From the NCBI GenBank assembly GCA_043228905.1, contig JBHGNT010000018.1, forward strand, positions 1,612,001-1,676,000: DNA of 64,000 bases, given 5' to 3'. The notes under the pieces are model-generated. The model made no database searches. It was not told the origin of the DNA and saw only the letters and a program-made list of their open reading frames with translations. Every line of letters starts with the position of its first letter. The stretch's first letter is position 1. The position numbers and the translations under genes were made by a program. The DNA comes from Azolla caroliniana. Lineage: Eukaryota > Plantae > Polypodiophyta. Shown here in pieces: positions 1-60,382 of the stretch.

Positions 1-680
1 GGTTTTTTTGAGGATGTTTCTTGTGATGATATCTCTAGACTACTCATATTGATCTTTGTTGATGATTTATCAACCGATTTTAAGACTTTCTTAGCTTCAA
101 TCTCTTCTCTAACAGGTCCACCTTGTTGCATTTCGTTCACAAACTCTCTAATTCTTTCCAAAATCATAGATTTCCCTGTAGACAAGAATGCTTCTCGAAC
201 CTTCTTTCCAAGAGGATTTTCATCCGCCACTGAAACCCTAATTTCGGGATCTTCATTGGCATTCTCATCAGCGAGATAAGGTATCAACACCTTACCTTTC
301 ACTTGTTCCACAGGCTTTCCATCTCCATCTCCATCTCCATCTGTCACCTCTCCTTTCCATGAAAGAGTAATGGAGAGTTCATACCCAGGAATGATCTTAC
401 CTTTTCTTATGTTGACATAAGCTTCGCCAGAGACAGTGTCAAGGTCAGTGGTGCAAATGGAGATGGACGACGATGAAGAAGAAGGAGACGGAGAAGCTAG
501 CTTTTCATCTTTTCCTTCTGAAGCTCCAATTGGAACTGTAAGGTTCTGTAAGAGCTCGGCGAGCCGTTTCTTGGCCCACGGAAGGCAATCCTTCTCCGAC
601 CAGTGCCAGTTATGGACGTTGGCTCCGTCTGCTCTCTCTTCGACGATCCAGCGCCTGTCTCCTTCGCCGTACTTGGCCAT
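1..680 (-). CDS. AHA1: Activator of Hsp90 ATPase (Aha1), N-terminal part; runs off the left edge of the window
   Basis: Manual translation from ATG 680 gives MAKYGEGDRRWIVEERADGANVHNWHWSEKDCLPW...GEAYVNIRKGKIIPGYEL...PYLADENANEDPEI...EMQQGGP, open to position 1. The NxNNWHW-type motif and RKGK motif are typical of plant Aha1. Confidence 0.95.
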   Translation of the reverse strand, partial: MAKYGEGDRRWIVEERADGANVHNWHWSEKDCLPWAKKRLAELLQNLTVPIGASEGKDEKLASPSPSSSSSSISICTTDLDTVSGEAYVNIRKGKIIPGYELSITLSWKGEVTDGDGDGDGKPVEQVKGKVLIPYLADENANEDPEIRVSVADENPLGKKVREAFLSTGKSMILERIREFVNEMQQGGPVREEIEAKKVLKSVDKSSTKINMSSLEISSQETSSKK

Positions 681-2569
681 GGGAACTCGCAGAGAAAAGC
701 TGCCAGTATTTAGGGTTTCAGGCGCTCGGCAGAAACCACAGACAGAGAGATTGGGAAGGTCAAGAAGGAGAAATGGAGAAAGGAAGGATTCTAGAAGGTT
801 CGGTGGGTTTCTCTAAATTTCCACGAATACCCCCCCCCCCCCGAGTTTACTAGAATTACAACGAATGCCCCTAGGAGCCTCTAGGGGACCCCTCTTTGTC
901 AATAATATTGTCCAGAACCTTTGACATGTTCGTGCGTCTTGCAAGAGTTGGATGGTCCCACACTTTCGGACACCTAAAACACATACACCCACTTGTTAGA
1001 ATTAGAATTTTTATGGTTCATAAAGAGGCCAATTTTGACCTATGGGACCAAAGTATACATGTGTTCTTGATATATGTCTCCTTCCTAAGAAGGGGTATTC
1101 ATACATTGAAGCACAAAGTCTCTATGTGTGAATAAAGCATACACATATGAGCTCAACCTTCTCGGTGGTGTCTTAAGTATGGCACTTAAGTCATCACCCC
1201 CTCTTAGTATAGTATGTCAGCATATCTTGAACGAATTACACTATATGTCAAGCATGTGAAAAGCAAGTGACATTCGTCCTTTGCCATGCCTTCATTGCAT
1301 ACTTTGCATGTTGAGAGAGAGAGAGTTAGGGTCCTCAAGGATTTTAGTACATTCTATTCCTATATGGATTGTGGACCATAACCATCCATAGTCTCTAATC
1401 GCCTTACTCACGTATACTCCCTTCCCTCCTTATGTTCGTCACAAACAACACCAATACCCTCCTTACCTGACAAGGAGGATTTTGGAAATTCCAATTGGTT
1501 TCCTCTAGCTCACTTGAAATACCCACATGTCCTCTAAATCCTATACCCCTTTTGCATACCCCTAGATAAGAGGATCCTTTAAATTTCTAGTACCTTTTTT
1601 GAATTGCCGCACTTCCAAAAGCTGACGAGATAACCCTAGGAACATGCAAGGAGAACTCTATTATAAATCTTAGTGCTTTTTCAAAGTAGGTCTAGGTGAT
1701 GCAAAAGTAAACGTTTGTGATCATGCAAAAGTAAATTTGAATTTGACAGCATGATTACTCTCTTAACAACATATAGAACTCAATTCAAGACAATGAACTT
1801 TAGATTTGATATGTTATTTGTTTGACATGATCATTGTTAATATGGAATTGTGTAGCTTGGGTTGGAAGGTTGAGATGCATTATCTTGAAAGGAGGTTAGA
1901 ACCATACAAACCATAGTACATAATATACTGGAATGCATTGACCAACATTCTTTTTCATATGAATGCAAACGAATGCGTATGTTATCAAAATACTCTTATG
2001 TTTTTTTTTACATTTTGTAGCTTACCTTTCTTACCTTCAAATAAATTGTACCTTTTAATAAATAATGAATACAAGATTATGGTATTTACTATACTTTTGA
2101 GGGTGTTTCCCATACCCAAATGATTGAAAATATTCTCGAATGCGAATGCACGTATGGTATGTATGGTTCATACTATGATACAAACCCTTATAACTTACTT
2201 ACAGCATAGTTCACCATTTGTATTTTAAATGTCATACATAAACTAGCAGAGTGTTTCAGTTGCAAAGTATGGTGCCAAGTCTAGATCAGATTTAGTACAA
2301 TAGAATCTAAGTTTATGCAAAATATAAAAAGCTCGAAATAACTCGCCAGATTAGAAAACTCCCAGATTCCTTACCATCAAACAAAACCCATGCATACACA
2401 ATGTATGGACACCCTTGGACATGTTATATATACTGGCTCTATAGTAATGAGATTCATTTTCACACGTTTATTCACCTGTAGTTACGATACGGAGATGACA
2501 ACAAGGACTCAATAAAATGCCACATACATTAAAAATGTCTTCCGATGCAAATGGTTGTATACCAGTATT

Positions 2570-5500
2570 CTACTGTGTGTAAGACATCATAATAAAATTT
2601 TGGAGATCAGCCTCATCCGATGATTCTGACTCACACTCCGAATCTGACAAGTAATCAATAAGGTATGGCATGGGCAATGGCTTTCCAAAGCTCCTCACAT
2701 GCTTCAAAATCCCAGATTTTCTTCCTTGCAAAATTTTTGATTCCTCCTCTTCAGTAAGATCTTCACCCAAAAGCTCAGTTACAGATGCTCTTCTTCCATT
2801 CCCATCACGATGATCGTTATATATTGTCGTCGGTATCTCCCATTCTTGAGCTGTCAGTATATGTGAAGAAACACGATCAATGTAAGGATTTCAGAGATGT
2901 GATTGCATCCAGCACAAGCTTAATCAGTGTTACAATTTAATCAAATCATCAACAAAGAGCTTTCCTTAAGATATTTTAGTTCCTGTAAACCTAATCTTAC
3001 ATAGAAAAATGGAAGGAATGAGCTAAAAAAATGAAATTTCAATTGTCATATTAATGTATCCTAATTTAAATTGACACTATTGTGTAAGTCTTCGGCTTTT
3101 ATCATATGTAATTTGACACTATTTCAACATGAGATTTTTTGAGAGTTAGCAACATTTGTTTGCTGAACATGGTCACTTAAAATTACATAGGTGGATCTAG
3201 AGAGCACTTTATTGTTCATTATATTTTAGATAATAGATACAATCAACCGTATTCAATCAACCCCAAGAATTTCTAGTCGAAACTTAATTTCATGGGAGCC
3301 ATTACTAAATGCATTTTAACTGCTGTTATTCACCTGGGTCATTGGACCTTCTCCTGTAACCAGCTGAACTAACTGGAATCACATCAAAGTCCTCAAATGG
3401 ACCAAGAATTGAAGTTCTCCAGTTCCGTTTGCTTTCCAGTTGTAAATTGTCTGCATGAAAAATGGATAAGGCCTAAGATTTTTCAGTCTCCAATGTCATT
3501 TAAAACTTTTTATTGTGATGGAGTACGATGAACACATGATGTTCTGTTTATTCGATGCAAGTTTCATCTCTCAGCATACAACAAATCTTTGATTGTAAAG
3601 GCATATGCCTGAGTGGATGTGTATGTATTCAACCCCCCTCCTCATCCTTGAGAGAGCATTAGTGACATCGATTAACTTGTTGTGCCCAGGTCACAAGGTT
3701 GGTGCAAAAATGCTTAGCAACTGTTTGAGGTCTTCATTGACAGATATTATACAATATTTGCTCCTTTCATGTCCAATGGAAAGACTTCTGTGATCCTTTC
3801 CATCTATCATCAATACTTTCAAGTTGACGATACTAAAGTTTATACTTCAAAACTCTCTTTAACTAGTTCCAGAATTTTGCATCTTCAAAAGAGAGGAATT
3901 CAGGGAAGAAAATTGGCATACCTTCATGGTTATATACAACGCTGACATGCTGATTTTTGCTGCTCTTAATAATCTTTATATACACAATCACTCCAATAAT
4001 GATTACAAGAAATACCAGCAACAATATTAGCATCCCAATATATGCATATGATGGACTTTCTTTTCGTGGCATAGATGAACTGTGCAAATTATGAGAGCTA
4101 GTAAATATCAGGTAAAGTTGTCTCAATGTGGATGGATCTGGAAGTTTGATACAAAAACCATCTGCTGTAGCAGTCCATCCTTCAACACATTCCGAACAGT
4201 CAGGACCTCCATGCCCTATATAACACCATAAAATCTTTAGTAGCTCTATGAAATATATGTAATTTCAAAAATAATTTTCATAGTAAAACATTCCTGGTTA
4301 TTCTAATCTTCCTTGGATCAGAGTAACATTGGTTTCTCTATCTATCACATGTCTGTCTACAAACAAGGAATGAAGAATATCATTCGCAGCCGGACCTCAT
4401 TTATGGGACACATAAGCTAATTGTCACTATTATAACCACAATAAATTGCAACTTGCATAATGTTTTGTATTTTGACATAAGACTGTACAGTTCTAAAGGA
4501 ACTACATAAACAAGAATTGATAAAATATAGTTTTTGAAAGAATTCCCCAGGTTAATTCTTGAATATAAAGAAGAGTCGACAATATTATTTTGAAAGAATT
4601 TTGATGTCTTTACCTTCAAAGCAACTACACTCCCCAGTGGTGTCAAAGCAAATGCCATGTCCACTGCAGACTATTTGTCTATTTGCTGATTTTGTCAGAC
4701 AACTTGAAGCCACGTATGGACAGTCATCTTGGCAACATGATGGAGAATCTGTAGTAGCACTCTTTCCATCCCAAGTACATCTTTCTCCTATCTCACATAT
4801 CCCATTCCCACAAACACCTGTCCTCGTTACCTCTTTTATTGAAGAAACATTTGCTTCCACAACTTCCTGAGGAAGTAAAACTTTTCAGAAGACCTGTTTC
4901 TCTGCTTCGAAATACAACTTAATTTTACCATGAATATACCACGGAATTAGAAGGCCCCATGATATTGAGCATCCCAGGACGAAGATGTTGCTTTATGATG
5001 GTTGATGTCATGTTAATCGAAGGCTGCTCTGATCAATAAAACTGAAATTTAGAAGATAATCACAATAATATTGAAGAATGTAAAGATTGTCTTGTTTGCA
5101 GACATCGAGCATGGTTCATGGAAACTATGTACTTACACTGTTTAACAATATTCCAACTGTCACATTCATATGCTGCAAATATCCTTTTTCAGCAAACAAA
5201 TTACTCTGATTTTTAGCCCCTTTCGAGCTACTATTATCAACATGGACATTTACAACAGACATGGAATCTTGTGAGGCATGGATATGAGAGGAAATCTGCA
5301 AAAAACGTTTTATGTTTCAATTCCTTAACATACGTTTAAACCTTAAACCCTAAACCTGAAACTAGCCATGCATCAGCATCTTTTATGCATATAAAAATGC
5401 ACTCAACAATTTGTGAAGAAAAAGAGGGGAAATAACAGTTTCAATTAGTTAAAAATAAGAAAAGTGAACTGTTTTTGAACTTACATATGCGACAGCCTTT

Positions 5501-8500
5501 TGGATCAACAATGATGTAAGCATATTATCCTTTGATAGTAAAGAGCTCGAATTGACATTTGCAGATAGGGATAATGTTATGGCAGTAGCACATGTGCTAT
5601 CATTTCCATCACAAACATGGCATTCATCCACATTCCCACTCTCGCAACATACCCCTTTTTCATCTCGTATGCTTGAACAACATTTGTTGTGAGAATCAAC
5701 TGCACTACTTATTCAAACAACAAAGTGTTAATTTAATCTATTTTTAAGAATCAAACAAAAAATGCAACCTAAGTAGATACTCACATGGCATCACCGTTGC
5801 ATATGCCACAAGCATCGAGTATACCACTTTCACAGCAATTTCCATCCTGCCAAAGATGAAAATAGAACAATATTGATATAGACAGTAAACCATCAAGTTC
5901 AAGTTCACTACAATATCAAACATAAAGTTGTTACGAAAATTCTGAATTGTGAATTGAGAGCCAAGACCAATTAGCAATTAGGTAGATTATGGTTTCACTG
6001 GCTGCCACCACGGACATTATTCAATATTGCTTTCAACAGAATATGGATGTCTGCCACCAGCGTACCAATTGAACTGACTCCTGAGTTCCACATTTCACTT
6101 CTAAGAAGAACTAGCTGTTTTTATGTTGGTACAAAAATTGTGGGAAGTATTGGAAAATTAACAAATAGAACCTTGCATTATTCCAATACCAAGGATAATG
6201 TGTTTTCCACATTCCTTAATTAATTCACGCTTTCTATTTTCACAGTAGTGTGAGAGAACCTTGTCAAGCTTTGCTGTTGAATTTCTGCAACATGTTTGTT
6301 TAAAGTCCACAAGTTTGCAACAATTTACAGTGTTATTAGTACTATAACCAAGAAACCCGCTGCAATTTGTCAGCTTTTCACAGTTCAAACCTTCCCAGCC
6401 ATCAAAGCAAATGCATGCATCATCCTACAAATGGGAATCACCAAAAATTTCAACATACTTTGTAAAAATAAGATATAAGCTGACAAGGTGAAAAAATATT
6501 ACATTACTCCCTAATACCAAATCATCAGAACTAAAGAAGTTATTATCATGGCACGCATATTATATTGAAATTATGAATTAATGAAGGTTTCTTAATTGTG
6601 TTTTTTTGAAGTAAGAAAATTTATTGATTTTCTTTATTATAATAATAAATTTTGGAAGGATAAGAGTAATCTAGAAATGGCATTATTCTATATAAAGATT
6701 GTGAATTCTCTTCCTTGGGTGGAAAGACAAGAATATCCCACGTTTTATTTTCATCAAGTTATACAGTCTCGATGCCTTCTTCTCGGTCTGTTAAATATCA
6801 TTAAAGTTCATCATCGTCTCCCTTTTGGCTCTATGCATTGGGTATATTGTGAAACCCTTCTTAAACACCATTTGTTTGAGATAATTGCTTTACTCAGTCT
6901 GAGATGTAGCATTGATTAGCTGACTTGGTCTACTCCATGGTTGACAAGTGAACATTTCTGCTCCCAAGTTCGAACTTTTGAAAATCCCTTGTTTGGCTAC
7001 AATCGTTGAATCGGATTGCTCGCCCACCTCGTCAGAGCAGGTACACTATACTCAATCTGAGATGTAGCATTGATTAGCTGACTTGGTCTACTCCATGGTT
7101 GACAGTTGAACATTCTGCTCCCAAGTTCGAACTTATTTGAAAATCCCGTGTATGGCCACAATCGTTGAATAGGATTTCTCACCCACCTCGTCAGACCATG
7201 TACACTATGTCATGAATGTATTGACACTCCAAACTGCTATGGTATTCCTAGCCAACCTGTATCAATGTATCTTCTCTTTCAACAATCCCCGTCCAGTGAT
7301 CATTCTATGACAATCTTTCAGGTCTTCCAGTACAGGACTGAAACTGTTTGAACGTCACTGTTTTAAGTCTCAGTGCCCTCTCCATCCTTCTCCATCATAA
7401 CGACCAACACCTTGCCATTCCCATTTCGTCGGGAGATAAATATTTCCATCTCCATTTGGTGCACCTCTATCCATGCAGAGGCTGCAATAGCTTGAACGTT
7501 GAGGCCATCAATAAGCCCATTCTCCCGTTTCAGAGGTTGTTTCCATTGTTCTTGCACAGAAGTGGTCTATTGAGATGGTACCTGTGCCAAATATGGTCTT
7601 AAATATCCTTCAAAGATCTTCTGTCTAATTCCACATCCCATCCATGATTCTCACTGGATGAAAAGTGTCTGTCAACCTTAGCTTTCTGGATGTATCTGCT
7701 ACAGATACCTTTCTTGTTCTTCGCATCGAATTATTGGCCTATCTGCCTGATTTAGATGCACATAACTTGAAATCCAACTGTCCAAAAATGATTGCAGTGG
7801 AATCATACCATCCAATAAAGAAGTGAATATAGTCTGTGGATACTTACATCCCACTATGGATCCGGGAGGCTTGCTCCCTTTAGGATGAATAGGGATTTTT
7901 ACAACTCTCAGCCTTTCCACCTGCCCATTCAACGGTCAGAAATTTTATCTCCACAATGCTTGAAATACCCTTCAAACTTACATAAGTGAAACTCTCCTCC
8001 TGGATCAGCCCTTGGTTTTGCTTTGCTTTTTTATCAGGGTATCCACACAGATGCGATCAGGATCAAGATCTAACAGAAGTCCAAGATACTCGATCAGTGA
8101 ACACTTTTGTCAGTAGTTTATGTACTTGCCCACCAACAAGTGTTTTGCTTCCTGGCAGAATCCAGAAAGGAAATCACATGCCCATGGTTGGGTGTTGTTC
8201 TCAGGTGGCATAACAACTTCTGGAGGGAAATGTCATATCCATAGTTGTACATTGGTTCTTGACCTTCGTAAGGGAATGCCATACCCAGTATCAGGCATCA
8301 GTTCCGGCATATCCTCACAAATTAGGATACAAAATGCCATACGCATGGTTGGGCATGGGCTTTAAGATGCTCAGTTTCCTTCACTATCGATTTCTTCCCA
8401 AAAGCCAGAAAGTACACCCAGATCATCCTACTATATAATCAAATGTCAGAATGAAGTAGGTTGAATCCATGGTTCTTTTGCAAATGTCCATGATGCAAGT

Positions 8501-11500
8501 TATCACTTCCCAACACATCAGTTACTACTGCTAAATTACTCTTTTGTTACTATTGGTAAATTACTCTCTGAACTTATCCCCATGAGTGTCAAAAGCTCCA
8601 GTGGCTGAACCACTGATGCCAAATCTTGTCATGGAAAGATAATCAATACATAGACCATACTAACCAGCCAATACACCACGTGCAGAATATATTTTGGTGT
8701 TCAAATTGGAAAAAAAAGATATATTAACAAACTAATTGCATTCGTTAACTGGTCTATGCACAATCACTACCAAGATGTAATTCCTTCATTTCTTGAGATT
8801 ATATCATGTAGACTTGTGGTATGTATACATGTGAGCAATATTGATCTATCTCAGAAGGATAGATAGCTTGGATACAGTATACTTTGAGCTTTAAATCATT
8901 TCTATACTGACAATTCTTCTATGATGCACCTTATACTAACTGGCATTGTGATAGGTAGCATTAGGCTCTTGTATGAAATTGTAGCCTGAAATAATGAGCT
9001 GACCTTATATGAAGCTTGGTAAATATTTGACTGTTTTACATGTTTCTAATCCTAGAAAAGGAATGCTGATGCAAAAATTAATATTTGCACCCTTCAAAGC
9101 ATCATATGCACACAATTGTAGAAATCATATAAAATCCTTTCACAATATTCCAAATCAGCAAATATTCTAATTAAACTTCATTAAGTTACCTGACATATTC
9201 CATTCTTTGAGCATCCATTGCCACAATATGTTTTTGAATTGTTCGCCCTTGTAAAAGAAGATTGATTGAGTGGCTTCTTTGGAAGACAATGTGAATCATC
9301 CACTTTCATACCAGCTCCATCTACACACTATTAACTTTTTTCTCTCTTCTCTCCTCTGTTCTCTCTTCTCTCTTTGAAGGACAACAATGCAACCACAACA
9401 GCTCATCAACAAAGAATCATCACAGTTTTCTGTCATTCCATCACTTGATCTCATGCTATAAGTCAACAGCTACACAAGTAGGGTTTCAGAATAGGTTACA
9501 ATAGATAGGAACTAGCAATTTTTGTTCACGTTGGCCAAGTTGATATGAACCATGACTCTCAACCTTTGTCATCAACAAATAAAGGCCATTATCACCCAAT
9601 AACATAGGTGCTTCGGTCACTTGGAGAGTTTCCCATCTTGGATGAGGCCATATTCGAAATCCTTTGAAGGCAGACATTTCAATCTATCTAAGTTCAGAAT
9701 CTTATGCGCTTAACAAACAAGATTCTTGGTACTTACATTTAATTATATTTATTTTAGTTTACTGTTCTCGAAGATGAGACAACATTTTAGGATGTAATCA
9801 TTTTTCGGTCTCATAGGCTATTTCAGCTATTTTGGCCTCTTTCTTTCTAATGTCAAGGGTGTGATTTAACCTTGCTTCTCTGGACCAACAGACAACCACT
9901 CTATAGCAGGGTTTGGAACACAGTTGCAGTCCCCATTTACCAATAATCTGATCAGTACTTCGTTCTCTCTTGCTAACTAGAAGTAAACCCACTCCACTGT
10001 AGAATACCTGCTATATTTGATAACCCTACGGTCAAGACAAATGTCACAAGAATAACTACTTGAAGAAAGTGAATGCTTTGAAGAATACTTGAAGATCAGC
10101 ACCAACACTTGAACACAGCTATCAACAATGTATAATCAAATACAGGAAAGAAGGTATGTATTTGAGAAAGAAGAATGTGAATGATTTGAAAAAATTCTTG
10201 AAGGTCAGCACCAACACTCAGACATAGCAATCAACAATATATAAACAAATACAAGCAAGACAGTATGCACTCTTTCATAAACAAATTGTGCCAGATGTTA
10301 TTGCCAAAAATAGAGGAAGAAACGTAACGATAATTATGAATTCAAGATTAGTTTTGGTGGGGCTGTTGAAGACTAGAAGGAAACAGTTGTCCCACAGGCC
10401 ACGGATAAAGAGTTCAAGAATGATACCCATCTTCTTGATCATCAAATACACGAAAAAAGGCCAGTCATGCCATCCATTTCATTGGCATAGTGATACAGTT
10501 CACATTAAATTCTGATGGAGAATAAGTCCATACAAAAATGAATTCATCTATCTAAGAGGAGAATAGCAGGAGGGCCTGTGTGCATTCACATGGATTGCCA
10601 ATATTGATAGTAAGTATACCCTCCCATATACATTACCTCCACTGGTGAATGCTGGAATTTAAAGTCAAGTATCAATGTGAAAGATTTTTCTTTCTTTCCT
10701 ATTATTCTAAGAAGGCGGGGTGCCAGATGAAAAGGAAAAATACTTGCTGCCATATAAGGGCCTGCAATCTTGTAAACATTAGCAGTGAGCAGAGGTGCAG
10801 ACAAATGGTAATCAGGGATCCAACTTTATGAATCCCCTCTACGTAAATTTCTAGCTGATTTAGACATTTCTATTGCAAAATAATAATAAAACTTCATCTT
10901 GCAATTTCCTAATGAGTGCATAAGATTTGGTTCTTTTTAGTCATTTATTTCAATGGTGTACAGCATGCATTCCAGATTTTACTATAATGTTCATAAACGG
11001 TGTGTAGATGCATGTTCTATGAAAGAAAGAGCTACACAATCACCTGAACAATCCTCTCACTATAGGGACTGCCTGATGTCCACGGTCCAACAAGCCAAGC
11101 ATAGTCTTTGCAAGGCTGCAAAATAAAGATGTGAAGACATCCAATAAATTTAAAATGACATCTTGTAGATAATACATTTCTTTTATTTCAATGGTATATT
11201 ATACCTTTGGACATGAGCAACAGGCATTGCTCCCTTAAAAAACCAATAATGAACATTTAAAACAACCATGTTTGTAATGACATACAGACAGCATGCAGAA
11301 GATATATTTGTTGTCATCTCAATCAAGAACTAGAAGAAATGTGTCAGTTTTACCCAGAATTTGTTAAACCCCATTATCTTCATCCAGGATCCATGAGAAT
11401 ACATTAAGCATCTTTGGGCAAAATTCAGAATTAGATATTTTCCAGGTACTTGTCACCACTTACATAGTTGTATATATGCATGAGTTGTCCACTTTCAATG

Positions 11501-14500
11501 TATAGGATAGACTTATTCAAGGTTGAGGAATTATATTAATTTCCTTTTCACACATTTCGACCAAGGTTTTAAGAAGTCTAGGAAACCCTGCATAACACTA
11601 TGCATTATATTATAAAGAGCAAATAGATCCACGTGGGTGGTAATTGACATGCCTGATACTGTTTTCCGAAAGGGGATAGACAGATTTGGGATTACTCAGC
11701 AAGGGAACAAAGATTCTCCCCACAGATTATTCACAGGACAATGCCAGTTTTAAGTACATACATGAAACTCCTTTATGAATCAGATGCAGAGCCTAGGAGA
11801 AGAAAGAGCACAATAATGAAAACACAAGTCACCAGGGATTCAGAAATGGATAATGGAAAATATTCAAACCTTCATTGTACAATAAAGATAAAAATGTGTT
11901 TTACAAATTCGTTTTTCACAATCAAATGTTGAAAACAGAGTTGAAAACGTTGCCTTGCTATTAAGAGATTATCATGTGTGCAACATTAAAAACAAAGTGT
12001 TAAGGCAACACTGCTTTCAGAAAGTGCATAATAGCGCATGGAAGATAATGACATAGTTGTATACTAGGCAGTAAAATTTCAGGAGTACCAATTCAAAGTT
12101 AAAAACAGTTCTTTAAATATAACATAAAGAAGATAAGAACATTCAAAGAGAAATAGATGTCCTCAACTTTAAGGAATGTTTTCCAATGACAATTATGAAA
12201 ATCATGTGTTGCGCAATCAAAATGATATTGTCTAAAACAAGCTGGTTATTTTGTACAATCTAAAAGAAAAAATTCTGAATATCTACATCTTGAACTTTGA
12301 TAAGAAACGTGTAAATTGTATGCAGTTAAAAATGAAATGTTAATGATGTCACATATATCCAAACGTAATATTAGGAATCAAATTAATGATCGGTATATAA
12401 TAAGAGTAAGGAAAATAATGGATTAAGGGTGCTTGACCACACTACCCAGCCCCAAGAAGGACATGAGCTCAGACATAGAATATCATCAGTGTTCCATACC
12501 ATCGAGTATCACCTTACGCTATACACTGGTAGTTGAAGAATGAATGATAAAAAGAGAGCTTAGCGTCATCAATAGAGTCTCAATGACATTTTAAGAAGGG
12601 AGGGTGGCTAGTCCCCTTTATATTTCCCAGCATTTAGCACTCCCAGACAACATGATCCTACATGTCATGGATCCTTTCGGAGTTTGTCCCAAGCCATAGG
12701 ATAGTTGGTTTCCTACTTATCCTACCCGTTAACAATTAAAATTAGCTTCAGATTTCGTCCTTAAGGGTATAGCAATAACATGTAAAGAAACAGAACATGA
12801 AGATTCTTATATGGAAGAAATGTTATAACTAACAAAACCTAACTGCCCTAGAAGAAAACAAGAAACAGAAAAAGAATCTCACTATTACAAATAAAAAGAT
12901 GGCATAACATTGAAAGATACCTTGATAAAACCTTTAGATTTATATGAATCGTGATCATTTTTAGGTTTCACAAATTAAACTGCAAGACGCTTGATAAGAC
13001 TTTTGAACAGTCATAAAAAACTCTGATTGGCCTCAAAACATGGTGCTCTTCATGGTATTTGTCTACTTTTATTCTTATCCAATAATTATACTAAGGCGAA
13101 AACAAAATAGGAATAGAATGAACCTCTTTCAAGAATGTTTCCAAAACAAAAAACCTCTGACTGAAACAGTAGCATGGTATTGTCTACTTTTATTATTATC
13201 CAATAATTATACTAAGGGGAAATCAAAATAGGAATAGGATAGACCTCTTTCAAGAATGCTTCCAAAACAAGAAACCCCTGACTGAAACAGTAGACCAATA
13301 TCAGATTAAGTCACAAATAACAGCTAATGAACACAAGGAATATTATTAAAATCTCATGCAAAACAGAGAGAATATTGATTTCAGCTTAAAGAGAGCCAAC
13401 TGGTCATAGTTGTCCAATTTTGCCGTCATGATGCTTTAGGAGGCAGCAGCCTTAAAAGCTAAGAACCCAAATATCAAAAGCGTATCAGCCAACATTGGGT
13501 TCTCCTTGGTTATTTTCTGCATATGAAATTCATTTTCTGCAATAATGTGTTTCAGCTCCATGTTTCTGTTATCTTATTATTAATAGTGCTTCCAACAAGA
13601 TGAGACACAAAAAGAGTTCTTCTAGACCTGTGCAAAAAGATTTATTCTTTTATGTAATTCTAGTATAAAATGGCATTATAAAATACTAACTGGCTTTCAA
13701 ACTGGGCATATTTATATTTTGTAAGGCCCTGCTTTAAAAAGGTGAGTCCCAACTCCCACCCTCACAATTCACTCAATTATATAGTCGACTTATTGCCCTG
13801 TAGATATCTGATGGGTTTTAATCAGTGCACTTAGACTAAGGTATTCTTTCATTCTGTCTTTGGGAACTCGTTTCCAATGTTTAACTTAATTTAAGAATAA
13901 GAAAATGTTCCTGTGGGAAAGGGTAAATATACTTTGGATTAGCATTACAATAAATGTCATTATCTGAACTTTATGGGATATATGTCCTTGTAAATATGCT
14001 GTTAGAATTTTAAGAAAGAAAGAAACTTTATTTACTTTAAAACTCTCGTACCTGAGAATTGCACGGTTCTTCATGCTTCAATTGTGGTTTCAGACAATGA
14101 TCGACTATTTTCCCTTTCTGATTGCACGTTACGTTTCTGACCCTCTTGCTTCCACCACAAGTCTTAGGACAAGCACTCCAGCTGGAAGCATCCCAATATG
14201 AAGCATTGCAAGCTTGTACAAAACAATTTCTGATCTCTACCAGTCCACCTGTTTCACAATAACTAGGCTTCACAAGATTTCCAAGACTGTCAACGCAAAC
14301 TTCTTTTCTGCAATGAAAATCACTAATTTAAGTATCAGATAAAAATGCTGATTAAAATAATGATGAAATTATGATCAGTTTGACCATTGTCTTCTAAAAG
14401 GATAAGTGAGTACCTTGTCTGATAGCCCCATCCACAACTTTCACTGCATTCATTCCATTGAAGAGGATGGATTTTATACGTCATACAGGCAAAATTACTA

Positions 14501-17500
14501 CAAGTCTACAAGAAAGAATATATAAGTAATGAACTCTCTCCTCTCCAACTGTCTTTAGCTTGTACATTGATGAATTGGAATAAATGGTTGAGTTTGTACG
14601 ACAAGAAGGCATTGAAGAGGTTACCACTGGGAATGATCGTGAAGACTCTGAATAACGATAAATCATGCATTGTTTATGACAATGAGGCAATAGAAACCAT
14701 ACAAAGATTCAAATAACTTGGGCTTGAAATTTCCCCCAATCACAGATAGAATGAATGTGCTACTCACTGCTTCGGAGACAGAATGAGTGCTTACTATGCA
14801 TTTGTGAACATATAAAATGAAGGAAAATATAAATATGGGGGTTTCTCATGAAGTACCTCTTTGACACTTGGGTGACACTTCAAGTGATAGAGTGGTATAA
14901 TGATAAAAAATGTTCAGCGCTCTTACTTCTAGAGATAAGGAGACACAAAGAGGGCCTCAAGGGAAAGCTCGTCATTGAAATGCTCTCCATAGGCAGAGAA
15001 ACATAATAGATTCCTTCCATGTGGATACTACTAGGAACACTCATCGTGGTGTATAAGCAAGCAGCCCAGCAAGAGTGGATTCACAATTTAGAGGAATCAC
15101 AAAAACTAGATCCATGTCATTGTACAAGCATTAAAGCTATGGAATCCTGTCAGAGCTCAGACAAGCCCCGCATAATGAACCACTGGGGGCGAATGTACCA
15201 CCACACATTATCTCTGAGAGAAATATCCAAGCAGCAGGGGATCCAACAGACAACATAAAGTTATACTAAAAACTTTACAATTGATGATGTCTATGATAGG
15301 CATCTATCTCTTCAGAAGTGAACATATCAAAGTGCTTCTTGAGTATCTTGTAATCGTGAGCATAAAGACCAGACCCAATGAAGCCAGCCCATATAATAAA
15401 TATACGCCCTATTAATGATATCACTAGAGAACTGCTCCCTAAGAGATATATAAATATTCTATAACCCAGCACATGAAAGCCATAGACTAGGGTACATCAC
15501 AGATCACAAGCATACAAATGAAACGAGAAATGAACTAGAGACTACAGCACAAGATCCTCAAACATGGGCCAGTGCAGCTGCTAAGGTATCTACAATTAGG
15601 CCTACATCAACAGTTTGGCACTGAAAATAAACAAACTGGAAGATTGATATGATGCGATCAAATAGAGGTTCAAAGTTGACTGAGAAACTCTGATTGTTTC
15701 CAGCATGCAGCCAATGGTATAACTGAGTCAGTACAGCATCCTGCTGATTATTTTACACAAAATATGAAAAGAAAGATACATTTATCATCTGGTTGTGCTA
15801 GATTCAAGGGACTCAAACACCCTCTCAGATCCAAACAAGGAAGCAGATCTAAAATTTCTAAAAACACCAAGCTCGAGCATCTGTCGAGTCATCTGACCCA
15901 GAAGACATGTATTTTCACACTTGCCCACAATTGATGTAGTGCCTGCAGGGGGCGGGGGGAGGGAGAGAGACAAGGTAGACCTGGTTATCCACAAAACAAC
16001 AATCTGCATGTGATAAATGCATAGAGGACCAAGGGCAACTTCACACTCACCGGTGAATAAGTGAGGGACTTTCCGCCTCTATGTAAGATCCAGCAAGAGG
16101 TAGTGTACCAAACCGTATTGAATTACAGCTGGTTAGACTATAAGAAACAACAAGCAATTAATAGATGCATAAGGAGACATCTTTGAGATGTTGGCCAATA
16201 GATCCATGCATATAATTGCATATGTCTATGCGCTCCAGTACAGGGATCTTTAATTTGCTGATTATTTAAATCATATTTCAGATCTAGTGGAAATCCTCTC
16301 ATTGACGTGTTTTCTCGTGTTTCATGATAAAGGATGAGAGGTACCACCCTGATTGTCTTCACACCCATTCAGATTCCAAGGACAGTTTCATCTGTTCCAT
16401 TCCCAATAAGAGCCTCTCTATCTCCAATAACCCTACAATGGAAAAGTTGAAGAAAATATCCATTGATTAGTTTCTACATTTTTCAGCCACATACCTGGTT
16501 CTAAAAGGAGGCCGCATTTCAGAGAAACATTATTCTAGTAGTCTTAATAATTTTGTATTTTGTCTGCCCTCATTGTTATTCCTAATGAGAAGTAAATGCT
16601 TTTTGTATTCATCAGATGTGCACTATAGGTATTTATGGTAATGTCGATGCAATCAACTATGAAAGGTAGTGTTTCCTTTCAATTGTTCAAGGGAAGGTCG
16701 AAAAAATGGTTTGATCCAACAGTTGATAACCTTATATCGCATGGCAATGTTTCCTTCCAAGTTCTAAATGTTCAACAGAATGCAGGATTTGAATGATACG
16801 CACACCCTTCAATTGTGACACAAGACAAATTGGGATTTTTAGCGATCAATCTACCTCAATATTCATTCTCATGCAATTACTATATATAATTTTGCACATT
16901 GCAGAAGAAACGTCAGACTGAGTAAGAAAGCAAACAAACTTGCAATCAGAGATCAACCTGTGAAGTTTCTGGAATGCCCAAATGGAGGCAATTCGAAATA
17001 TTAACTGCAGTCAAATTTCTATCGAAACAGGATATGCCTTTTAATTTCTGTAAACAGTACAAAAAGCTTTTAACTTCCTGGTGAGCATCTAAATTACAAA
17101 ATGCGCATGTTTACATCTGCAGGCAGAAAAAATGCATTGCAATATTGCAATATGTTCATGAATGCATATTATACAGAAGAGCAGAAGCCAATAGAAACCT
17201 TGCTATCTCCACATTTATGGTTACAAGATCCTGGTACAGTAGGGTACCAAAAGTATAACGAAGAAAACTTATTCACATATGTAATAGTTGGCTTCAATCT
17301 GCAATTTTTAGTTTTCCAATTGGTGCAAGTTTCCCCACCATCTGGTCACACAAAGACCATCATCAATAGATGTCTAAAACTTATTTTCTCTAAAAGATGT
17401 TCTAACAATCCATGCTGCTATTTGAATAAAAAGTTGATTCTAATTTAATGTTTCCTGAAGTATTTATATGCAGTGGCATGTTCAAAATTTACGTAACGCA

Positions 17501-18363
17501 AACAATCCTACATGCTTATATATAAAATATACTTAGACTCAGTCTGTATGCTCCTGACTGCATTAAGTGGCTTACTAGTGAGCCCATTTCTAGGTTCTTG
17601 TTCAACCATCAAATCTGATATCTGCAATAATCCTTGAACAATCTGCAGTCACACAAATATTTTCAAATGTCAAGAGTGTAAGCGCAATATCGTCTATGCA
17701 TCAAAAACTTTCACGCGGATGGTGTAAAATTCTTCACATAACGTATAATCTTTCATATGTCAAAAGACTGAAAATTCAAAACATATTTAAAGTTACGTTT
17801 ATAAATCGTTTTGTATCCATGGAAAGAAAATCTCATAAGAAATAAATGTGAAACAACCTATGACATCTTTATTGAACTGTTAGAGGTTCGTATGTCAAGA
17901 CTGAGAACAAGTTGTGCAAACAAATTCCTATGTAGGAAAAAAAATCGTACGTAGAAAACCACAAAGTTGATTAAAATAACAACATTGAGAACAAAATGTG
18001 CCAAAAAAACCTACGGATTGGAATACAGAAATATATAGATAGATAGATTTTTCCATTATAACTGTTAATAGAAATATTACGTAAATCACTAACTAATATG
18101 TACTATCAAGGATAAAATAATCATTAATCGAGAGATATGATCGAGTAAAATATAAAGATGACATAGTCACCAACCCGGAGATATTAGAAAAGAGAGAAAA
18201 AAACACAAGCAAATAAATACTGACCAAAGAACAAATATTCATTAAAACCAGGAGATATCTAAGCCGAGAAAGTAAATTCACTAACCTGGAGGGATGCTGG
18301 GATCAGAAACGCAATCAAGAATGTGAAGTCGTGTAGCAGCTTCATCTTCATCTTTTTCTCCAT
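2570..18363 (-). CDS. 17-exon type I membrane protein (~856 aa): signal peptide, ~4 ADAMTS-type TSP1 repeats, EGF-like, CC..D.CG.C.GD Cys-rich repeats, spacer, Cys-rich/EGF-laminin-like module, TM helix, cytoplasmic tail
   Basis: Exons: 18363-18286, 17642-17576, 17341-17199, 17047-16958, 14505-14414, 14307-14052, 11115-11044, 9327-9190, 6424-6260, 5846-5785, 5704-5485, 5295-5137, 5023-4940, 4866-4614, 4215-3922, 3450-3334, 2850-2570. All are GT-AG with matching phases, totalling 2571 nt with no internal stop. Motifs: MKMKLLHDFTFLIAFLIPASLQIVQG (signal); WNECSESCGWGYQTRKEVC and YWDASSWSACPKTCGGSKRVRNVTC (TSP1); CSKNGICQDDACICFDGWEGLNC and CSGHGICFDTTGECSCFEGHGGPDC (EGF); YIGMLILLLVFLVIIIGVIVYI (TM). 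Confidence 0.88.
6700..8420 (-). mobile_element. Decayed coding-like relic (probably transposon-derived) in intron 8 of the TSP1 gene
   Basis: Higher-GC block with several broken minus-strand ORFs (7699-7932, 7363-7557, 6997-7182). The host gene model does not need it. Family not recognised. Confidence 0.35.
6892..7209. repeat. Tandem duplication, ~159 bp x2
   Basis: ctgagatgtagcattgattagctgacttggtctactccatggttgaca...cccacctcgtcaga...tacactat occurs twice head to tail. Confidence 0.9.
10065..10267. repeat. Diverged tandem duplication, ~110 bp x2
   Basis: gtgaatg.tttgaa.aa..cttgaag.tcagcaccaacact...caacaat.tataa.caaataca is repeated. Confidence 0.8.
13051..13293. repeat. Tandem duplication, ~122 bp x2
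   Basis: catggtat(t)tgtctacttttatt.ttatccaataattatactaagg...ctgactgaaacagtag occurs twice. Confidence 0.9.
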
Positions 18364-28679: not shown

Positions 28680-28689
28680 GTGTGTAGCC

Positions 28690-37831: not shown

Positions 37832-40036
37832 TTATGGGCAAGAACCCCATAGATCATCCAATTGAGTTATACTGTTTTCTACATTACATGGGGAAGAGCT
37901 AATCACTATTGCATCTCCTTCTAATCCATGGAGCATATCGATTTGATCCCATATAAAATCATTCTCTAAGATGCCCCATGTGCTATAAGAAGATGGATCG
38001 ATGCTTGACATGATTGGAAATGTACTAGTCCATTCGCCGGTTTGAACTTCATGGACTCCTCCGAGACTAGGAAAACTGGTACAATGCAATGGTCTTGATA
38101 GTAGTCCATGATCATTACAATCCACTTCAGATATCTCTTTTGTTGACCCAATCTTTTGAATCTGAGGCATTTCAATGTTATTAATGCATTCTCGAGTTTG
38201 GCTACTGTCCAAGCAATTCGCTGTTATAATGCCACCATTAATATTGGAATGCATTAACAAGCATGGACTCTCATGATTTTGTGTAGTATAGTTTTCAAAT
38301 TCATTCATTCCTTTCCCAAGAATAATGATTTTTGGGTGTCTCAACGAAGATTCAAATACATTAGCCTTATTACTAGCACATGTTTCCAAATTACATCGAG
38401 CATTTCTTTTAATTTCTCTATCGAATCCGTTGGATCTTGGGAAAGGTTTATGTGTCTTGGGGTCGATCCCCAGTGCATACAATCTTTTCTTGAGATGGGC
38501 ATTCCAATGGTTCTTTATCTCATTATCAGTTCGACCTGGTAGTTTGCTAGCAATGAGGGACCACCTACACATATTGAACATATGTTTAAAAGGTTAAATT
38601 CATGATAGGGAACATTGTCACAGATAAAAGATTGCTAGATGCAAATTTCCTATTTAATTAAACCCATTCTACATATAACCTATTCAACTCTAATATTAGT
38701 TCGAAACAAATTTTGATTGTGCTTGATTTGATCCATAAACTTAGATTGTTAATTTTCATGCCAAATATGTAAATAAATGTAGGTATTTGATTGTTCTTGA
38801 ATTATTGATCTGGCATAAAGATTGTTAATTTTCATGCCAAATCTGTAAATAAATGTAGGTATTTGATTGTTCTTGAATTATTGATCTGGCATAAAGATTG
38901 TTATTTTCATGCCAAAGCTGTAAATGAATGTAGGTGTTGTCCGTGTGAATTTCTCAGAACATGAGCATTGTTGTGCATTAGGAAACTTTCCATGAGTCTA
39001 ATTATTCAAGTTGCATTGTATTATATGCTTTTAGAGCAGATTAACTGTTTGATTATCAGGTGTTTCAAAGCGCCATTTTTAGTTCAAATGTGCTTCATCT
39101 GAAATTCATAGTTACTAGATCAATTCGTGCTCGAAGGGGCATGATTCTAGGTGCATTTTTACCTGTTGCCTAGAATGGAATGGAGCTTGATGATGAGGCT
39201 CTCTTCATCTTTGGAGATGTTCCCTTTCTTTATGTTGGGCCGAAGGTAGTTCAACCAACGTAGCCGGCAACTCTTGCCGCATCGAAGCAACCCTGCTTCG
39301 AGAAAATTTTCAATTTAAGAAAGATTAAGGATTGTTAATTTCATAGAAAAGTATACTATAATGGAGGATTAACTTGATATATAGATATCCTTGCTATGGG
39401 GAATTAACTTGACATACACTATAAGGGGGGGGGGATTAACAATCCTTATCAAAGAAAGATAAGGATTGTTAATTTCATAGCAAGGTATAGTAGGGGGGGA
39501 TTAACTTGACATAATACTATGGGGGATTAACTGTAATCCTTATTCAAGAAAGATAAGGACTGTTAATTTCATAGCAAGGTATATTATGGGGGGGATTAAC
39601 TTGACATATTAATACTATGGGGGATTAACTGTAATCCTTATTCAAGAAAGATAAGGACTGTTAATTTCATAGCAAGGTATATTATGGGGGGGGGGGATTA
39701 ACTTGACATATTAATACTATGGGGGATTAACTGTAATCCTTATTCAAGAAAGATTAAGGAGTGTTAATTTCATAGCAAGGTATACTATAATGGGAGATTA
39801 GCAATCTTTATCAAGGATTGTGAATGCTCTCAATAATGATCCATGTATTTGATTTCCAAGGCTTATCACGTTTCAGAACAAAAAAAAACTAAATGGTTGG
39901 TACCTGCTTCCTTGGGCAAGGTGCGCCATGCACCTTCACCATGCTTCTTGATATGAAGGATTAGTCGCATGTCTTCGCAAGATGTCCATGGCCCTCGCTT
40001 CAGTCCCACCTTCTCGCAGCACGGAGCTCGCCCCAT
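37832..40036 (-). CDS. R2R3-MYB transcription factor (~331 aa)
   Basis: Canonical 133/130-nt exons 40036-39904 and 39292-39163, then 38564-37832. Reads [17 protein letters not shown]...[19 protein letters not shown]...[24 protein letters not shown], followed by GIDPKTHKP. Confidence 0.97.
38742..38936. repeat. Tandem repeat, ~77 bp x2.6, in MYB intron 2
   Basis: agattgttaattttcatgccaaa..tgtaaataaatgtaggtatttgattgttcttgaattattgatctggcataa is repeated. Confidence 0.9.
39317..39820. repeat. Tandem repeat, ~95-135 bp x5, in MYB intron 1
   Basis: Units of aagaaagat(t)aagga.tgttaatttcatagcaaggtata...gggggattaacttgacata with variable G-runs. Confidence 0.9.
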
Positions 40037-43282: not shown

Positions 43283-44705
43283 TCATTCACTAGAATTTCC
43301 ACAAATCATGGCCATTAACTGATATGCTGCAATTTGACAATGATCATCATCATCACTGATTCTCAGCATAGAGTTAAATGCTTTCCATCCAAGATCTACA
43401 TTACCCCATTTGTCACAGGCACCTAACATGGCATTAAATTTTACAGAATTAGGTTTCACAAATAGGTCTCTCGCGAGCATTGCAAAAGCCTCATCAAGCC
43501 GTCCTACACGGGCGACTAGGTCAAGCATACAATTATTGTGCTCAATATCAGCAACAATGCCATATTCCCTCATCATAACCTCAAAATACTTCTGTGCAGG
43601 ATCCAAAAACCCTGAATGACTACATGCAGTAAACATACTTTGAAATGTAATTTGATCAGGATTTATATTTTCATCTTTCATTCTATCCAGCACATCGAAG
43701 ATAACTTCACTTTCCCCATGATATGCATATCCTGATATGAGTGCTGTCCATGACACCAAGTCTTGAACTTGAATCTTATCAAATACTTGATGAGCTTCTG
43801 TAAGTGATCCACAATTTGCATACGCATCCACCAAAGCACTACCCACAAAGCTCTCCCTTTCAAATCCTTGCATGATGGCCATTCCATGCATTTCATGGAT
43901 CTTTTCTACAGTGGTTATAATTCCTAACACTTTGAATATGGAAACAAATGTGATAGCATTAAATGGAATACATTGTACTTGCATTTGTTCAAGACAGCTT
44001 AATGCTTTCTCATATGACCCATATTTGGCATAATTCCCAATCAAGGCATCCCAAGAGACTATATCCTTCATCTCAAGTTCATCAAAGATCGATTGTGTAT
44101 CTGTAAACACGCCAAATTTTCCATACATATCAACAAGAGTATTACCGATATGAGAATGTCCCTCAAATCCTTCTTTGACAATCTCCAAATGTAGTTGAAG
44201 CCCATGGTTTAGGTCTCGTACACTACCAAAAGCCTTAAGGCAGCAAATAATAATCGTCTCGTCAAGATCCACAGGCATATTTTTTATGCAATCCCATGCT
44301 TTTGAACATGGCAACTGCAAGGTTATGTTCACCACATGAGATATGGCTTTTCACAACAAAAGCCAAACAAAATTCATTGCAAATGAATAGTCTTTGAAAT
44401 AACACTCTCCGAGAATCATGCAAATCTCCGCATTCACTTAGCATAGGGATAAGGTGATTCCCCACCACAGGATGCGAATCCAAACCATGACAGCATATCT
44501 CATGATGCAAAAACTTTGCAAAGCCACCATGGCCTCTTCATTTTCTGCATTCTTGTAGACTGTAGATGAGTTCTGCTACAAGGGGTAAAGTTTGAACTCT
44601 TACCCGTGAGTTTGTTGAGTTCCATAGCTGTTGAGGAGGCATAGAAGCTTCGGATCCATGAGGAAAAGCATGACATAGGTTGTCATTGATGATTTTTTCT
44701 TCCAT
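43283..44705 (-). pseudogene. PLS-class PPR gene with truncated E domain, disabled at the 5' end
   Basis: The reading from ATG 44705 hits an in-frame TGA at 44540-44538, then a frameshift near 44285 into the 350-aa ORF. That ORF has VGSALVDAYANCG/DLVSWTALISGYA PLS motifs and ACSHSG...HNNCMLDLVARVGRLDEA, and ends at AYQLMAMIC. No DYW domain. Confidence 0.8.
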
Positions 44706-51325: not shown

Positions 51326-51414
51326 TAATCTACTTTGCAAATTAGACATTAACCCATGTTTAAATACTCTTAATCTACTTTGCAAATTAGACATTAACCC
51401 ATGTTTAAATACTC
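51326..51414. repeat. ~44-bp direct duplication at the LINE 5' junction
   Basis: taatctactttgcaaattagacattaacccatgtttaaatactc occurs twice. Confidence 0.85.
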
Positions 51415-52353
51415 AATGGACATGGCGTGATCCCTACGCGGGGCAAGGAAGCAAACCCATCCCTTTCTTCCAATTCACAACTAGATTGGGTCGCCACATT
51501 CTAGCTGCTCAAGCCGCCCGAGAACCGGCTGCTGCGAAGGTCTGGCACACATTTCAAGTTCCCTTCGCAATAATCACCAAGTTTTGGCAGAAAATCTGGA
51601 AGCAACAACACGCAAGGCGAATTACCATTTTCCAATGGTTGTTAATACATAAGGCCCTACCGGTGGGAGCATGGCAACGTGGGAACCTTAACTCTCTGAA
51701 TTGTGTAGAGTGCCCACATGTAGTAGAATCCATACAACACGCTCTGTGGGACTGCCCAACGTCCCATAGAACATGGCGGGGGGTTTGCCGCTTGTTGCAA
51801 TTATGCTAAGTGCAAGGTTCAATCAAGTGGGGAAATATATGTTGGCTATCATGGCAGGCTGCAATTGGCCGATACGAGCATCAGGAGGAGGGGATGACTT
51901 TGGTGATAAAAGCACAAGAGGTTCTTTTCTCCTCCAGCGACAATGTCCACTATTTTCCTCTTAATGACAAATCTCAAGAGGTGTTGGAATTGGTTAGCCC
52001 AATAACCCTTTGGATTCTATGGAAACAACGATGTAGGCGAGTCTTCTCCAACCAAACCACCCATCCAACAAGGTTACTGCAAGAGATATGGAGTGAAATT
52101 GTAGCCACTCTGAAAAGCCAATATGATGGCCTTAAAGGTGGCTCCGAGGGAGTTGAAAGACAACGCATAGCCTTCATCCAACAATGGTCGTCCTCTCCCT
52201 TTCTTGAGTCAGCGGGCTTCCACATTAGATGGAACTATCGCGTCCCTTTAGGGATTTGTACATAATCGCCTCATTTGTAAAATTTTATAACTAATGGAAG
52301 GAGTTTTTTTTTTGGAAAAAAAAAACAAATCTAATTTTTGGAAAGAAAAAAAA
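51414..52353 (+). mobile_element. 5'-truncated L1-like LINE (ORF2 C-terminus with zf-RVT)
   Basis: One reading frame with a single TAA at 51807-51809 gives FWQKIWK...FQWLLIHKALPVG...CVECPHVVESIQHALWDCP...LWILWKQRCRRVFSN, followed by T/A-rich tails. Confidence 0.88.
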
Positions 52354-56247: not shown

Positions 56248-56399
56248 GGGAAGGAAGAATGCTGCAATAGCCTCGAAGAAGTACAGATCTATCCAGCAGC
56301 AGAATGAAGAATCATGCATGAGTGAAATTTGCATATTTGAGAAGAATTAGAAACCTGCACAAAACAGCTCAAAGACGAAGAGGATATATATCAATTGAA

Positions 56400-59798: not shown

Positions 59799-60382
59799 GT
59801 ATGCGCAACCATCTCTTTTCAACAACAAATAAAACAAGTAAGGAAACTTATCTAGAATAAAACATATAGGTCACACATTCGATGGAATTGTTTCATGAGG
59901 ATTAGACTTTGGTGACTCCTTTCGATTGTATAGAAAAGCTATGAGGAGAAACATATACTTATTAATTAGTGATGTTCTTTTATCATGGGTGGTACCTCTG
60001 GTTACATGGTCAAGTTCATGTTAGAAGTTGATGTGGAATGCAAAAATTTCTTGATTCAAATGCATGGTTTTCTGTGTCCTCGAGTCTTTAACATTGTTCT
60101 CCTTTTACATTTAAATGAAATTTACAGTTATTTAAATATTGATTGTTTTATTGGCCTGATGTGGAGATAGTTTGAAAGCTGGTTAACTATGTGGAAATAG
60201 TTTAAAAGCTGGTTGTCTTAATAGAAATACATTGGCAGATGCACATAAGATGCAAAGACATACAAAGTATGTAGCACAAAATTTCATTATGTTCCTTACA
60301 AGATCATGAAAATATTTGTGCTCAACTTTAGGAACATTGTTGCATTATCTTTAATATCATGGCTCTATTGAGATGGGAGTTT

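Follow-up and report, generated by a model that had tools for sequence, protein, structure and literature searches.

TSP1 and EGF domains are typical of animals and apicomplexans. Among the closest described systems, the animal ADAMTS proteins join a metalloprotease to tandem TSP1 repeats, and the apicomplexan TRAP and MIC2 proteins are type I membrane proteins with TSP1 repeats and a short, acidic tail that carries a Trp near its end. In land plants, the nearest described proteins are proteinase-K-like subtilases of bryophytes (Mapoly0050s0101 of Marchantia and Pp1s87_136 of Physcomitrella), a group that was stated to be absent from vascular plants; Xu et al. (2019) treat these proteins as S8 proteases only, and a search of the main text for TSP, EGF and transmembrane gave no match (PMC6713707). 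Here, a gene with TSP1 and EGF units is described in a 64,000-nucleotide (nt) stretch of the fern Azolla caroliniana (assembly GCA_043228905.1, contig JBHGNT010000018.1, positions 1,612,001 to 1,676,000 of the forward strand), which is called the window. The gene encodes a predicted membrane protein of 856 amino acids (aa), the window protein, which by origin is probably the C-terminal half of a membrane-anchored subtilase and not a stand-alone adhesin, as judged by comparison with a separate protease gene of this genome and with a moss-like orthologue in which both halves are predicted to stand in one chain.

Compared with the bryophyte subtilases, the window protein has no protease domain and would be the C-terminal partner; the motifs of the bryophyte entries are shared by eye, over the first 400 letters in the part of the source at hand, with the fern protease gene and with the N-terminal half of the moss-like locus L005 (PMC6713707). 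As in ADAMTS, the TSP1 repeats are tandem and of the ADAMTS type, and the fused form sets a protease on a TSP1 array. However, this protease is a serine and not a metalloprotease, the protein is membrane-anchored, EGF and SEA-like units are added, and an ADAMTS spacer is missing; the design is parallel to that of ADAMTS and is not a member of the family. As in TRAP and MIC2, a type I membrane protein carries TSP1 repeats and an acidic patch in its tail. Unlike them, it has EGF and Cys-rich units and a tail of 150 aa without a terminal Trp (the last Trp stands about 87 residues before the end), no vWA (I) domain was matched by Pfam on exons 5-12 and 14-17 or in four non-plant homologues, and a search of the genome for Dpy19, made with no positive control, gave no match.

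Separate Protease Gene and Moss-Like Orthologue

A metagenome scan gave six loci: one belongs to a close relative, and the other five (L004-L008) come from a more distant plant, which is called moss-like for its protease sequence, by eye closest to the Physcomitrella entry of the published set (PMC6713707). The orthologue (L004/L005) aligns with the window protein at 35% identity over 695 aa (E 1.5e-120), and 10 of 14 introns fall within one alignment column and in the same phase, two more being two columns off. The moss-like exon ends are all AG/GT, the frame stays open, and four intact TSP1 repeats are kept. Upstream of the TSP1 part, on the same strand, lie Peptidase_S8 exons, along with an Ig-like repeat and another domain that we take to resemble the pre-peptidase C-terminal fold (no profile match). 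A 24-exon GT-AG model gives a chain of at least 1,501 aa with no stop, running from inside the protease into the tail, the N-terminal 190 aa or so lying outside the model.

At the joint between the two parts, all four loci that span it (L004-L007) retain a GTAAGT donor together with an acceptor in phase, and the tail that would be read through from an unspliced joint is unconserved (26 versus 2 aa). None of the 15 ATGs in the 412-bp gap at the joint starts a signal-peptide-like sequence. Exon 2 of the window gene ends in phase 1, which is also the phase of the junction between protease half and TSP1 part in the moss-like gene. These features point to a single transcript, which we regard as probable for the moss-like gene. 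The Marchantia protease Mapoly0050s0101, which has the same motifs, is entered with 1,604 aa by Xu et al. (2019; PMC6713707, Table S3).

In this fern, the protease model gave no match to an S8 domain within the window or in the 10 kb beyond. The protease half has one match in the genome, on another contig (G000:C1:33838221-33833388, minus strand), where 13 exons encode 699 aa with a signal-like N-terminus of their own; no TSP1 part lies downstream of it within the 50 kb examined. The encoded protein is 59% identical to the N-terminal half of L005, and its stop is found three codons past the position of the L005 donor, so that the two halves in this fern sum to about 1,507 aa. The catalytic triad and the oxyanion Asn are intact (D191, H237, N325 and S390), and the top matches in the PDB are 8c4z, 5wsl, 4dzt (aqualysin-1) and 2b6n (proteinase K). 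Judged from its sequence, the gene encodes an intact proteinase-K-like S8A subtilase. It would be a protease of the proteinase-K type in a vascular plant, contrary to the published statement of absence (PMC6713707).

Within the protease half, the Ig-like repeat has counterparts in the non-plant proteins P0053 and P0127 (17.4 and 12.0 bits, against 6.0 for the best of 1,500 shuffles), and both proteins carry these Ig-like repeats in the same chain as a TSP1 block. Because the repeat is shared with TSP1-bearing protist chains, one ancestral chain with a fission in this fern is favoured. The split state of the fern is likely derived.

Several points weigh against this reading. Ig-like repeats are mobile, so the shared repeat is moderate evidence, and a single fusion could be common to mosses and liverworts, which weakens the case for fission over fusion. 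The moss-like loci are 97% alike where compared and count as one lineage, their exon ends were placed with the window model as a guide, which makes the intron count not fully independent, and their joint is predicted from genomic DNA. In the published table, the Physcomitrella entry Pp1s87_136 has only 562 aa, and the comparison with the Marchantia entry covers its first 400 letters, with the C-terminus outside (PMC6713707).

The same points feed the alternative that two separate genes are ancestral, the moss-like and liverwort chains being a later fusion or neighbours joined by the model: the joint is modelled from genomic DNA, the Physcomitrella model is short, and a single non-fern plant lineage is seen at the DNA level. 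This alternative is improbable, since the in-phase splice sites are conserved, the TSP1 part of L004-L007 has no signal-like start, the Marchantia entry is long, and the Ig-like repeat is common to the protease half and the TSP1-bearing protist chains.

Gene Model and Transcript Evidence

The window gene runs on the minus strand from 18363 to 2570, with 17 exons, all bounded by GT-AG, that give 2,571 nt or 856 aa and a stop (Table 1). For 14 of the 16 junctions, the in-frame form is listed by spliced contigs of related organisms; these contigs belong to runs X1-X5 and X8 of three studies, are mostly 90-99% alike to the window, and are treated as RNA because GT-AG joints appear in them. Junction 12 (5137/5023) follows from the lengths of the pieces in run X5; none of the contigs from these runs shows junction 1 (18286/17642). 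In a null set of 20,000 random chains with the same exon lengths, the first stop appeared by residue 193 at the latest. The gene model, with 17 exons, 856 aa and an open frame, is confirmed. This bears out the preliminary description, which had read 17 phase-consistent exons and a stop-free frame of about 856 aa from the sequence; both checks that it had set for the gene model, junction support by spliced contigs and matches to hidden Markov models of TSP1, gave positive results.

At junction 12, an alternative acceptor at 5028, which lies 5 nt upstream and shifts the frame, is chosen in runs X1 and X8. It is seen in two studies, and its predicted product would end at 520 aa with no membrane anchor. 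A first gene model with acceptor 5028, which stopped at 520 aa, was replaced by the model with 5023; acceptor 5026 is also in frame. A frameshifting splice form occurs in four of the six RNA-like runs (X1, X2, X4 and X8) and a retained intron in a fifth (X3), both of which count against the reading of a stalk and a protease that still work together. In contigs of related organisms, frameshifting splice sites or a kept intron are often found at 5023-5028, 9320-9327, 17199-17248 and 13914-14052.

Two regions that resemble exons, 15800-16470 and 7700-8050, were discounted, as contigs splice across them and Pfam gave no match. The former, in intron 4, consists of three stretches with splice-like ends, and all three are skipped by spliced contigs. 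Short tandem duplications lie within introns at 6888-7208, 10081-10267 and 13059-13293, and the intronic region 9340-9950, matched by many contigs with loose ends, is probably a dispersed repeat.

Domain Layout

The predicted layout of the window protein is a signal peptide, four TSP1 repeats, an EGF unit, Cys-rich repeats, a spacer that is likely of the SEA type, a second EGF unit, one membrane helix and a tail of 150 aa. Exon 6 matches TSP1_ADAMTS (PF19030) with 27.7 bits (cut-off 23.8) and TSP_1 (PF00090) with 26.4 bits (cut-off 21.6), exon 5 is slightly below the TSP1 cut-offs, and exon 14 matches EGF_2 with 23.8 bits (cut-off 22.1). The hydropathy peaks are at residues 14-32 (1.86), which is signal-like, and at residues 686-704 (3.51), which corresponds to the membrane helix. 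The signal peptide, the single helix and the tail of about 150 aa with no kinase that the preliminary description had proposed are in agreement with hydropathy and Pfam, as is its second EGF unit on exon 14.

The usual TSP1 repeat has six Cys and a WxxC motif. Repeats 2 and 3 have this canonical pattern, whereas repeats 1 (5 Cys and 1 Trp) and 4 (2 Cys) are decayed; the CxxxC pair of repeat 4, lost in exon 7, is retained in L005, where WxxC is present in all four repeats. The earlier count of about four repeats of the ADAMTS type therefore holds for two of them, and the decay of the other two is a further point against a stalk that still works with the protease. The motif CxxS/TC, which is the context of O-fucose, occurs in two of four repeats in the window protein and in none of four in L005. 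The enzymes of O-fucose and C-mannose modification of TSP1 are placed in animals and alveolates in the part of the literature consulted (PMC8724618), and these animal sugar modifications are probably absent here.

No kinase was matched by Pfam on the tail exons, and the protein falls outside the receptor-like kinase class. Likewise, no M12B metalloprotease was matched by Pfam on exons 5-12 and 14-17, exons 1-4 and 13 being too small. The cytoplasmic tail barely aligns with that of the moss-like orthologue, and a conserved signalling role is therefore unlikely.

Non-Plant Relatives and the Spacer

A search with exon 6 gave 749 proteins. Among the best 150, four match the part that follows the repeats as well (E 4.5e-38 to 1.3e-14), namely P0149 of the stramenopile Platysulcus tardus and the eukaryote-like P0053, P0127 and P0114. 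The common order is a TSP1 array, EGF, CC and DxCGxCxG repeats, a Cys-free spacer of 115-162 aa, CGNxxCExGE, EGF and a membrane helix, although the P0114 model stops before the second EGF and the helix. The window protein has the same module order as these protist membrane proteins; however, the latter have more repeats, Ig- or PKD-like heads, no subtilase and no described function. Since the same EGF-Cys-spacer-CGNG-EGF-helix block is found in the stramenopile and in three other proteins, the module extends beyond the green lineage. Two more proteins, P0129 and P0172, are exon-like fragments of a third plant-type lineage, and both stop at the intron position that closes exon 6; the searches yielded no locus for either.

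The plant spacer resembles the protist spacers in position and length, but its alignment score with them is no better than 60 shuffles and no profile match was obtained. In a model of the P0053 block (mean confidence, pLDDT, of 60), the spacer has a ferredoxin-like fold in the order beta-alpha-beta-beta-alpha-beta. Its five best structure matches are in GPR126, SorCS2, TMPRSS6 and MUC16 with Z of 6.2-6.9 (that is, below 8), a root-mean-square deviation of 2.5-8.0 and 84-109 aligned residues. SEA is named in the structure titles for the MUC16 range, and the matched ranges of GPR126, SorCS2 and TMPRSS6 are presumably of the SEA type as well. A weak ESM Atlas row for the spacer names mucin-13 (template-modelling score, TM, 0.33). 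The predicted spacer fold of P0053 is thus like that of SEA surface proteins such as TMPRSS6, GPR126, MUC16 and dystroglycan, with the differences that Z stays under 8, that the model pLDDT is 60, and that the plant spacer has no sequence link to P0053. By this analogy, the spacer of the window protein is likely of the SEA type. The predicted SEA-type spacers of P0053, P0127, P0114 and P0149 contain an RRRL loop, a likely cleavage site, which both plant proteins lack.

Other searches gave no relative. In word-based protein searches, none was found among 28 candidates for exon 6, 43 for exon 11 and 56 for an alignment of two exons of the protease half, which is weak evidence, and feature searches of the ESM Atlas gave no usable match or only clusters under 0.9. 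A PDB sequence search with exon 6 gave no match and Foldseek none under E 0.001, NCBIfam matched none of 7 sequences, and no relative was found in prokaryote genomes and viral contigs.

Copy Number, Selection and Ancestry

Three genome searches, one each for exon 6, exon 14 and the TSP1 family, matched the window locus only, the sole extra match being a stretch at E 0.07 that contains a stop. Among the differences listed between run X1 and the window, the best 40 supported in each table, 49 were compared, of which 26 are synonymous and 23 non-synonymous with no stop, corresponding to a ratio of non-synonymous to synonymous rates (dN/dS) of about 0.23. The ratio is 0.43 against the genomic locus L003 on exons 5-6. 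Divergence is 14/348 for the exons and 135/1,844 for the intron compared. The window gene is single-copy and under purifying selection.

These values also bear on whether the gene is in slow decay or has a general vegetative role with no special gamete link. The decayed repeats 1 and 4, the frequent frameshifting splice forms and the value of 0.43 on exons 5-6 would fit decay, and spliced contigs in three studies of unstated tissue would fit a vegetative role. On the other hand, 856 codons stand with no stop or frameshift, dN/dS is well under 1, and the exons diverge less than the intron, which leaves this explanation with a slim chance.

A stand-alone adhesin or receptor, unrelated to the protease, whose two intact TSP1 repeats bind a ligand of the wall, the mucilage or a partner cell, is rather unlikely. 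It would account for the signal-peptide exon, membrane helix and tail that the window protein has of its own, for purifying selection on a stalk with no head, and for the four non-plant relatives, which have the same stalk with Ig- or PKD-like heads and no subtilase motif. It is opposed by the presence of stalk and protease as intact, single-copy genes in one genome, by the tail, unlike that of the orthologue, which speaks against a conserved signalling output, and by the decay of half of the TSP1 repeats.

An origin by contamination, or by recent transfer out of an animal or protist, might be suspected from the domain types, but the introns shared with a distant plant (10 of 14) refute it; the gene also sits among plant genes on an 18-Mb contig and is spliced in related organisms, so that the chance of such an origin is negligible.

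The 523-Mb genome has 19 matches to dynein heavy chains of the axonemal type. The evidence supports an old, vertically inherited type I membrane protein in a plant with axonemal dyneins. The ancient green-lineage adhesin or receptor of the preliminary description is retained in so far as the membrane protein is old and vertically inherited, and is revised in that the module occurs outside the green lineage too and the protein is probably no stand-alone adhesin by origin. At G000:C53:62977-152170, four copies of a dynein fragment with identical scores lie about 30 kb apart, with copies also on contig C12, as a tandem repeat or an assembly artefact.

Link to Gametes

In the supplements of PMC12851517, the best SwissProt match of the Physcomitrium gene Pp3c7_11150 is the 'Extracellular serine proteinase' of Thermus, and this name is the molecule name of the top PDB match to the fern protease. 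Its counts are 1210, 10320 and 0 in sperm packages and 0, 0 and 0 in eggs (PMC12851517). The neighbouring gene Pp3c7_11170 has a peak of 23.6 reads per kilobase per million (RPKM) in late antheridia, with about 0 in gametophore apices, egg, embryo and sporophyte, and its expression correlates (r 0.78) with that of the query gene listed first in the table, which is taken from the text to be the flagellar CCDC39 (PMC12851517). Pp3c7_11150 is probably the orthologue of the protease, because one Physcomitrella entry is found among the rows of the group in the part of the table at hand (PMC6713707). By analogy with these genes, a role in the release of sperm or their passage to the egg is suggested tentatively, and the gamete surface proposed in the preliminary description is supported indirectly.

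This suggestion is weakened by the zero count of Pp3c7_11150 in one of three sperm replicates, by the 11.1 RPKM of Pp3c7_11170 in mature archegonia, and by the 4,126 of 32,458 genes (about 13%) that are up in sperm versus egg (PMC12851517). The family identity of both genes is, moreover, read from annotation and gene numbers, and is probable for Pp3c7_11150. Mapoly0050s0101 is absent from the supplements, in the parts at hand, of PMC6290024, PMC8792609 (a thallus wall proteome) and PMC8699743 (one scanned file left out), which are weak blanks.

Exons and Neighbourhood

The exons are given in Table 1 with the ordinary neighbours of the gene. At 28654-34207 (+), exons are found that we take to resemble a GH5 mannanase; two pieces were scanned, with no Pfam match. 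Elsewhere in the genome, a MIR172-like hairpin lies at G000:C6:20409115-20409284; its loop holds a long insertion, and it scores under the Rfam cut-off although its two arms are close to the consensus.

Table 1. Exons of the window gene and neighbouring features, in window coordinates.
Feature	Position	Strand	Evidence
Exon 1, aa 1-26: initiation codon, larger part of predicted signal peptide	18286..18363	-	sequence, hydropathy
Exon 2, aa 27-49: signal peptide end, linker	17576..17642	-	contigs, model
Exon 3, aa 49-96: first Cys pair common to orthologue; decayed TSP1 repeat 1 begins	17199..17341	-	contigs, alignment
Exon 4, aa 97-126: remainder of TSP1 repeat 1	16958..17047	-	contigs, alignment
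Exon 5, aa 127-157: canonical TSP1 repeat 2, first half	14414..14505	-	Pfam, contigs
Exon 6, aa 157-242: repeat 2 end and canonical repeat 3	14052..14307	-	Pfam, contigs
Exon 7, aa 243-266: decayed repeat 4, first half	11044..11115	-	contigs, alignment
Exon 8, aa 267-312: repeat 4 end, EGF-like unit 1 start	9190..9327	-	contigs
Exon 9, aa 313-367: EGF 1 end, first CC motifs of Cys-rich region	6260..6424	-	Pfam scan, contigs
Exon 10, aa 368-388: Cys-rich repeat 1 (CC...DxCGxCxG)	5785..5846	-	contigs, homologues
Exon 11, aa 388-461: Cys-rich repeat 2; Cys-free spacer (aa 427-558) begins	5485..5704	-	contigs, homologues
Exon 12, aa 462-514: spacer, from its position likely of the SEA type	5137..5295	-	contigs, homologue model
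Exon 13, aa 515-542: spacer; frame-shifting alternative acceptor 5028	4940..5023	-	contigs
Exon 14, aa 543-627: CGNGxCExGE module and EGF-like unit 2	4614..4866	-	Pfam, contigs
Exon 15, aa 627-725: EGF 2 end, Ser-rich stalk, predicted membrane helix (~686-706)	3922..4215	-	contigs, hydropathy
Exon 16, aa 725-764: cytoplasmic tail	3334..3450	-	contigs
Exon 17, aa 764-856 and stop: tail with acidic Ser-rich patch	2570..2850	-	contigs
Aha1	3..686	-	
MYB	37835..38593	-	
PPR	43286..44350	-	
Rab GTPase	48019..48462	-	
Retroelement remnant	51276..52262	+	
SAWADEE-domain gene	56322..59829	+	

Proposed Mechanism and Implications

In the fused form, a serine protease of broad specificity would be brought to the cell surface by a signal peptide and a prodomain and kept off the membrane by a disulphide-bonded stalk. 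In this fern, the head would be secreted while the stalk stays in the membrane. Since both halves are conserved, cooperation between them is predicted as the simplest reading. We give about even chances to the explanation that the stalk gene and the separate protease gene arose by fission and still work as a membrane stalk and a secreted protease, which would probably act on the surface of antheridial cells or male gametes. As a more tentative step, the stalk may hold the protease, or its substrate, off the membrane, so that a wall or mucilage glycoprotein is cut locally. Taken to its full extent, the reading would be a sperm-surface protease machine of plants with swimming sperm, a proteinase-K head on a TSP1-EGF-SEA stalk, in parallel with animal ADAMTS and TMPRSS. 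The machine would form a single chain in mosses and liverworts, would consist of a membrane dock and a secreted protease in this fern, and would have disappeared from most seed plants along with the flagellum; this wider picture is possible but doubtful.

Literature searches gave no earlier description of this architecture or of a split into head and stalk. All of the parts are known, and the combination and the split likely constitute a new, undescribed surface-protease system. To our knowledge, the surface proteins that serve the exit of sperm from the antheridium, the passage of the neck and the contact with the egg are poorly known in mosses, liverworts and ferns. The window gene would be a single-copy candidate for this gap, with a named gene in Marchantia, Mapoly0050s0101. 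It is, moreover, a case of TSP1 repeats passed down within land plants and, likely, of a membrane protease that has split naturally into a head and a stalk.

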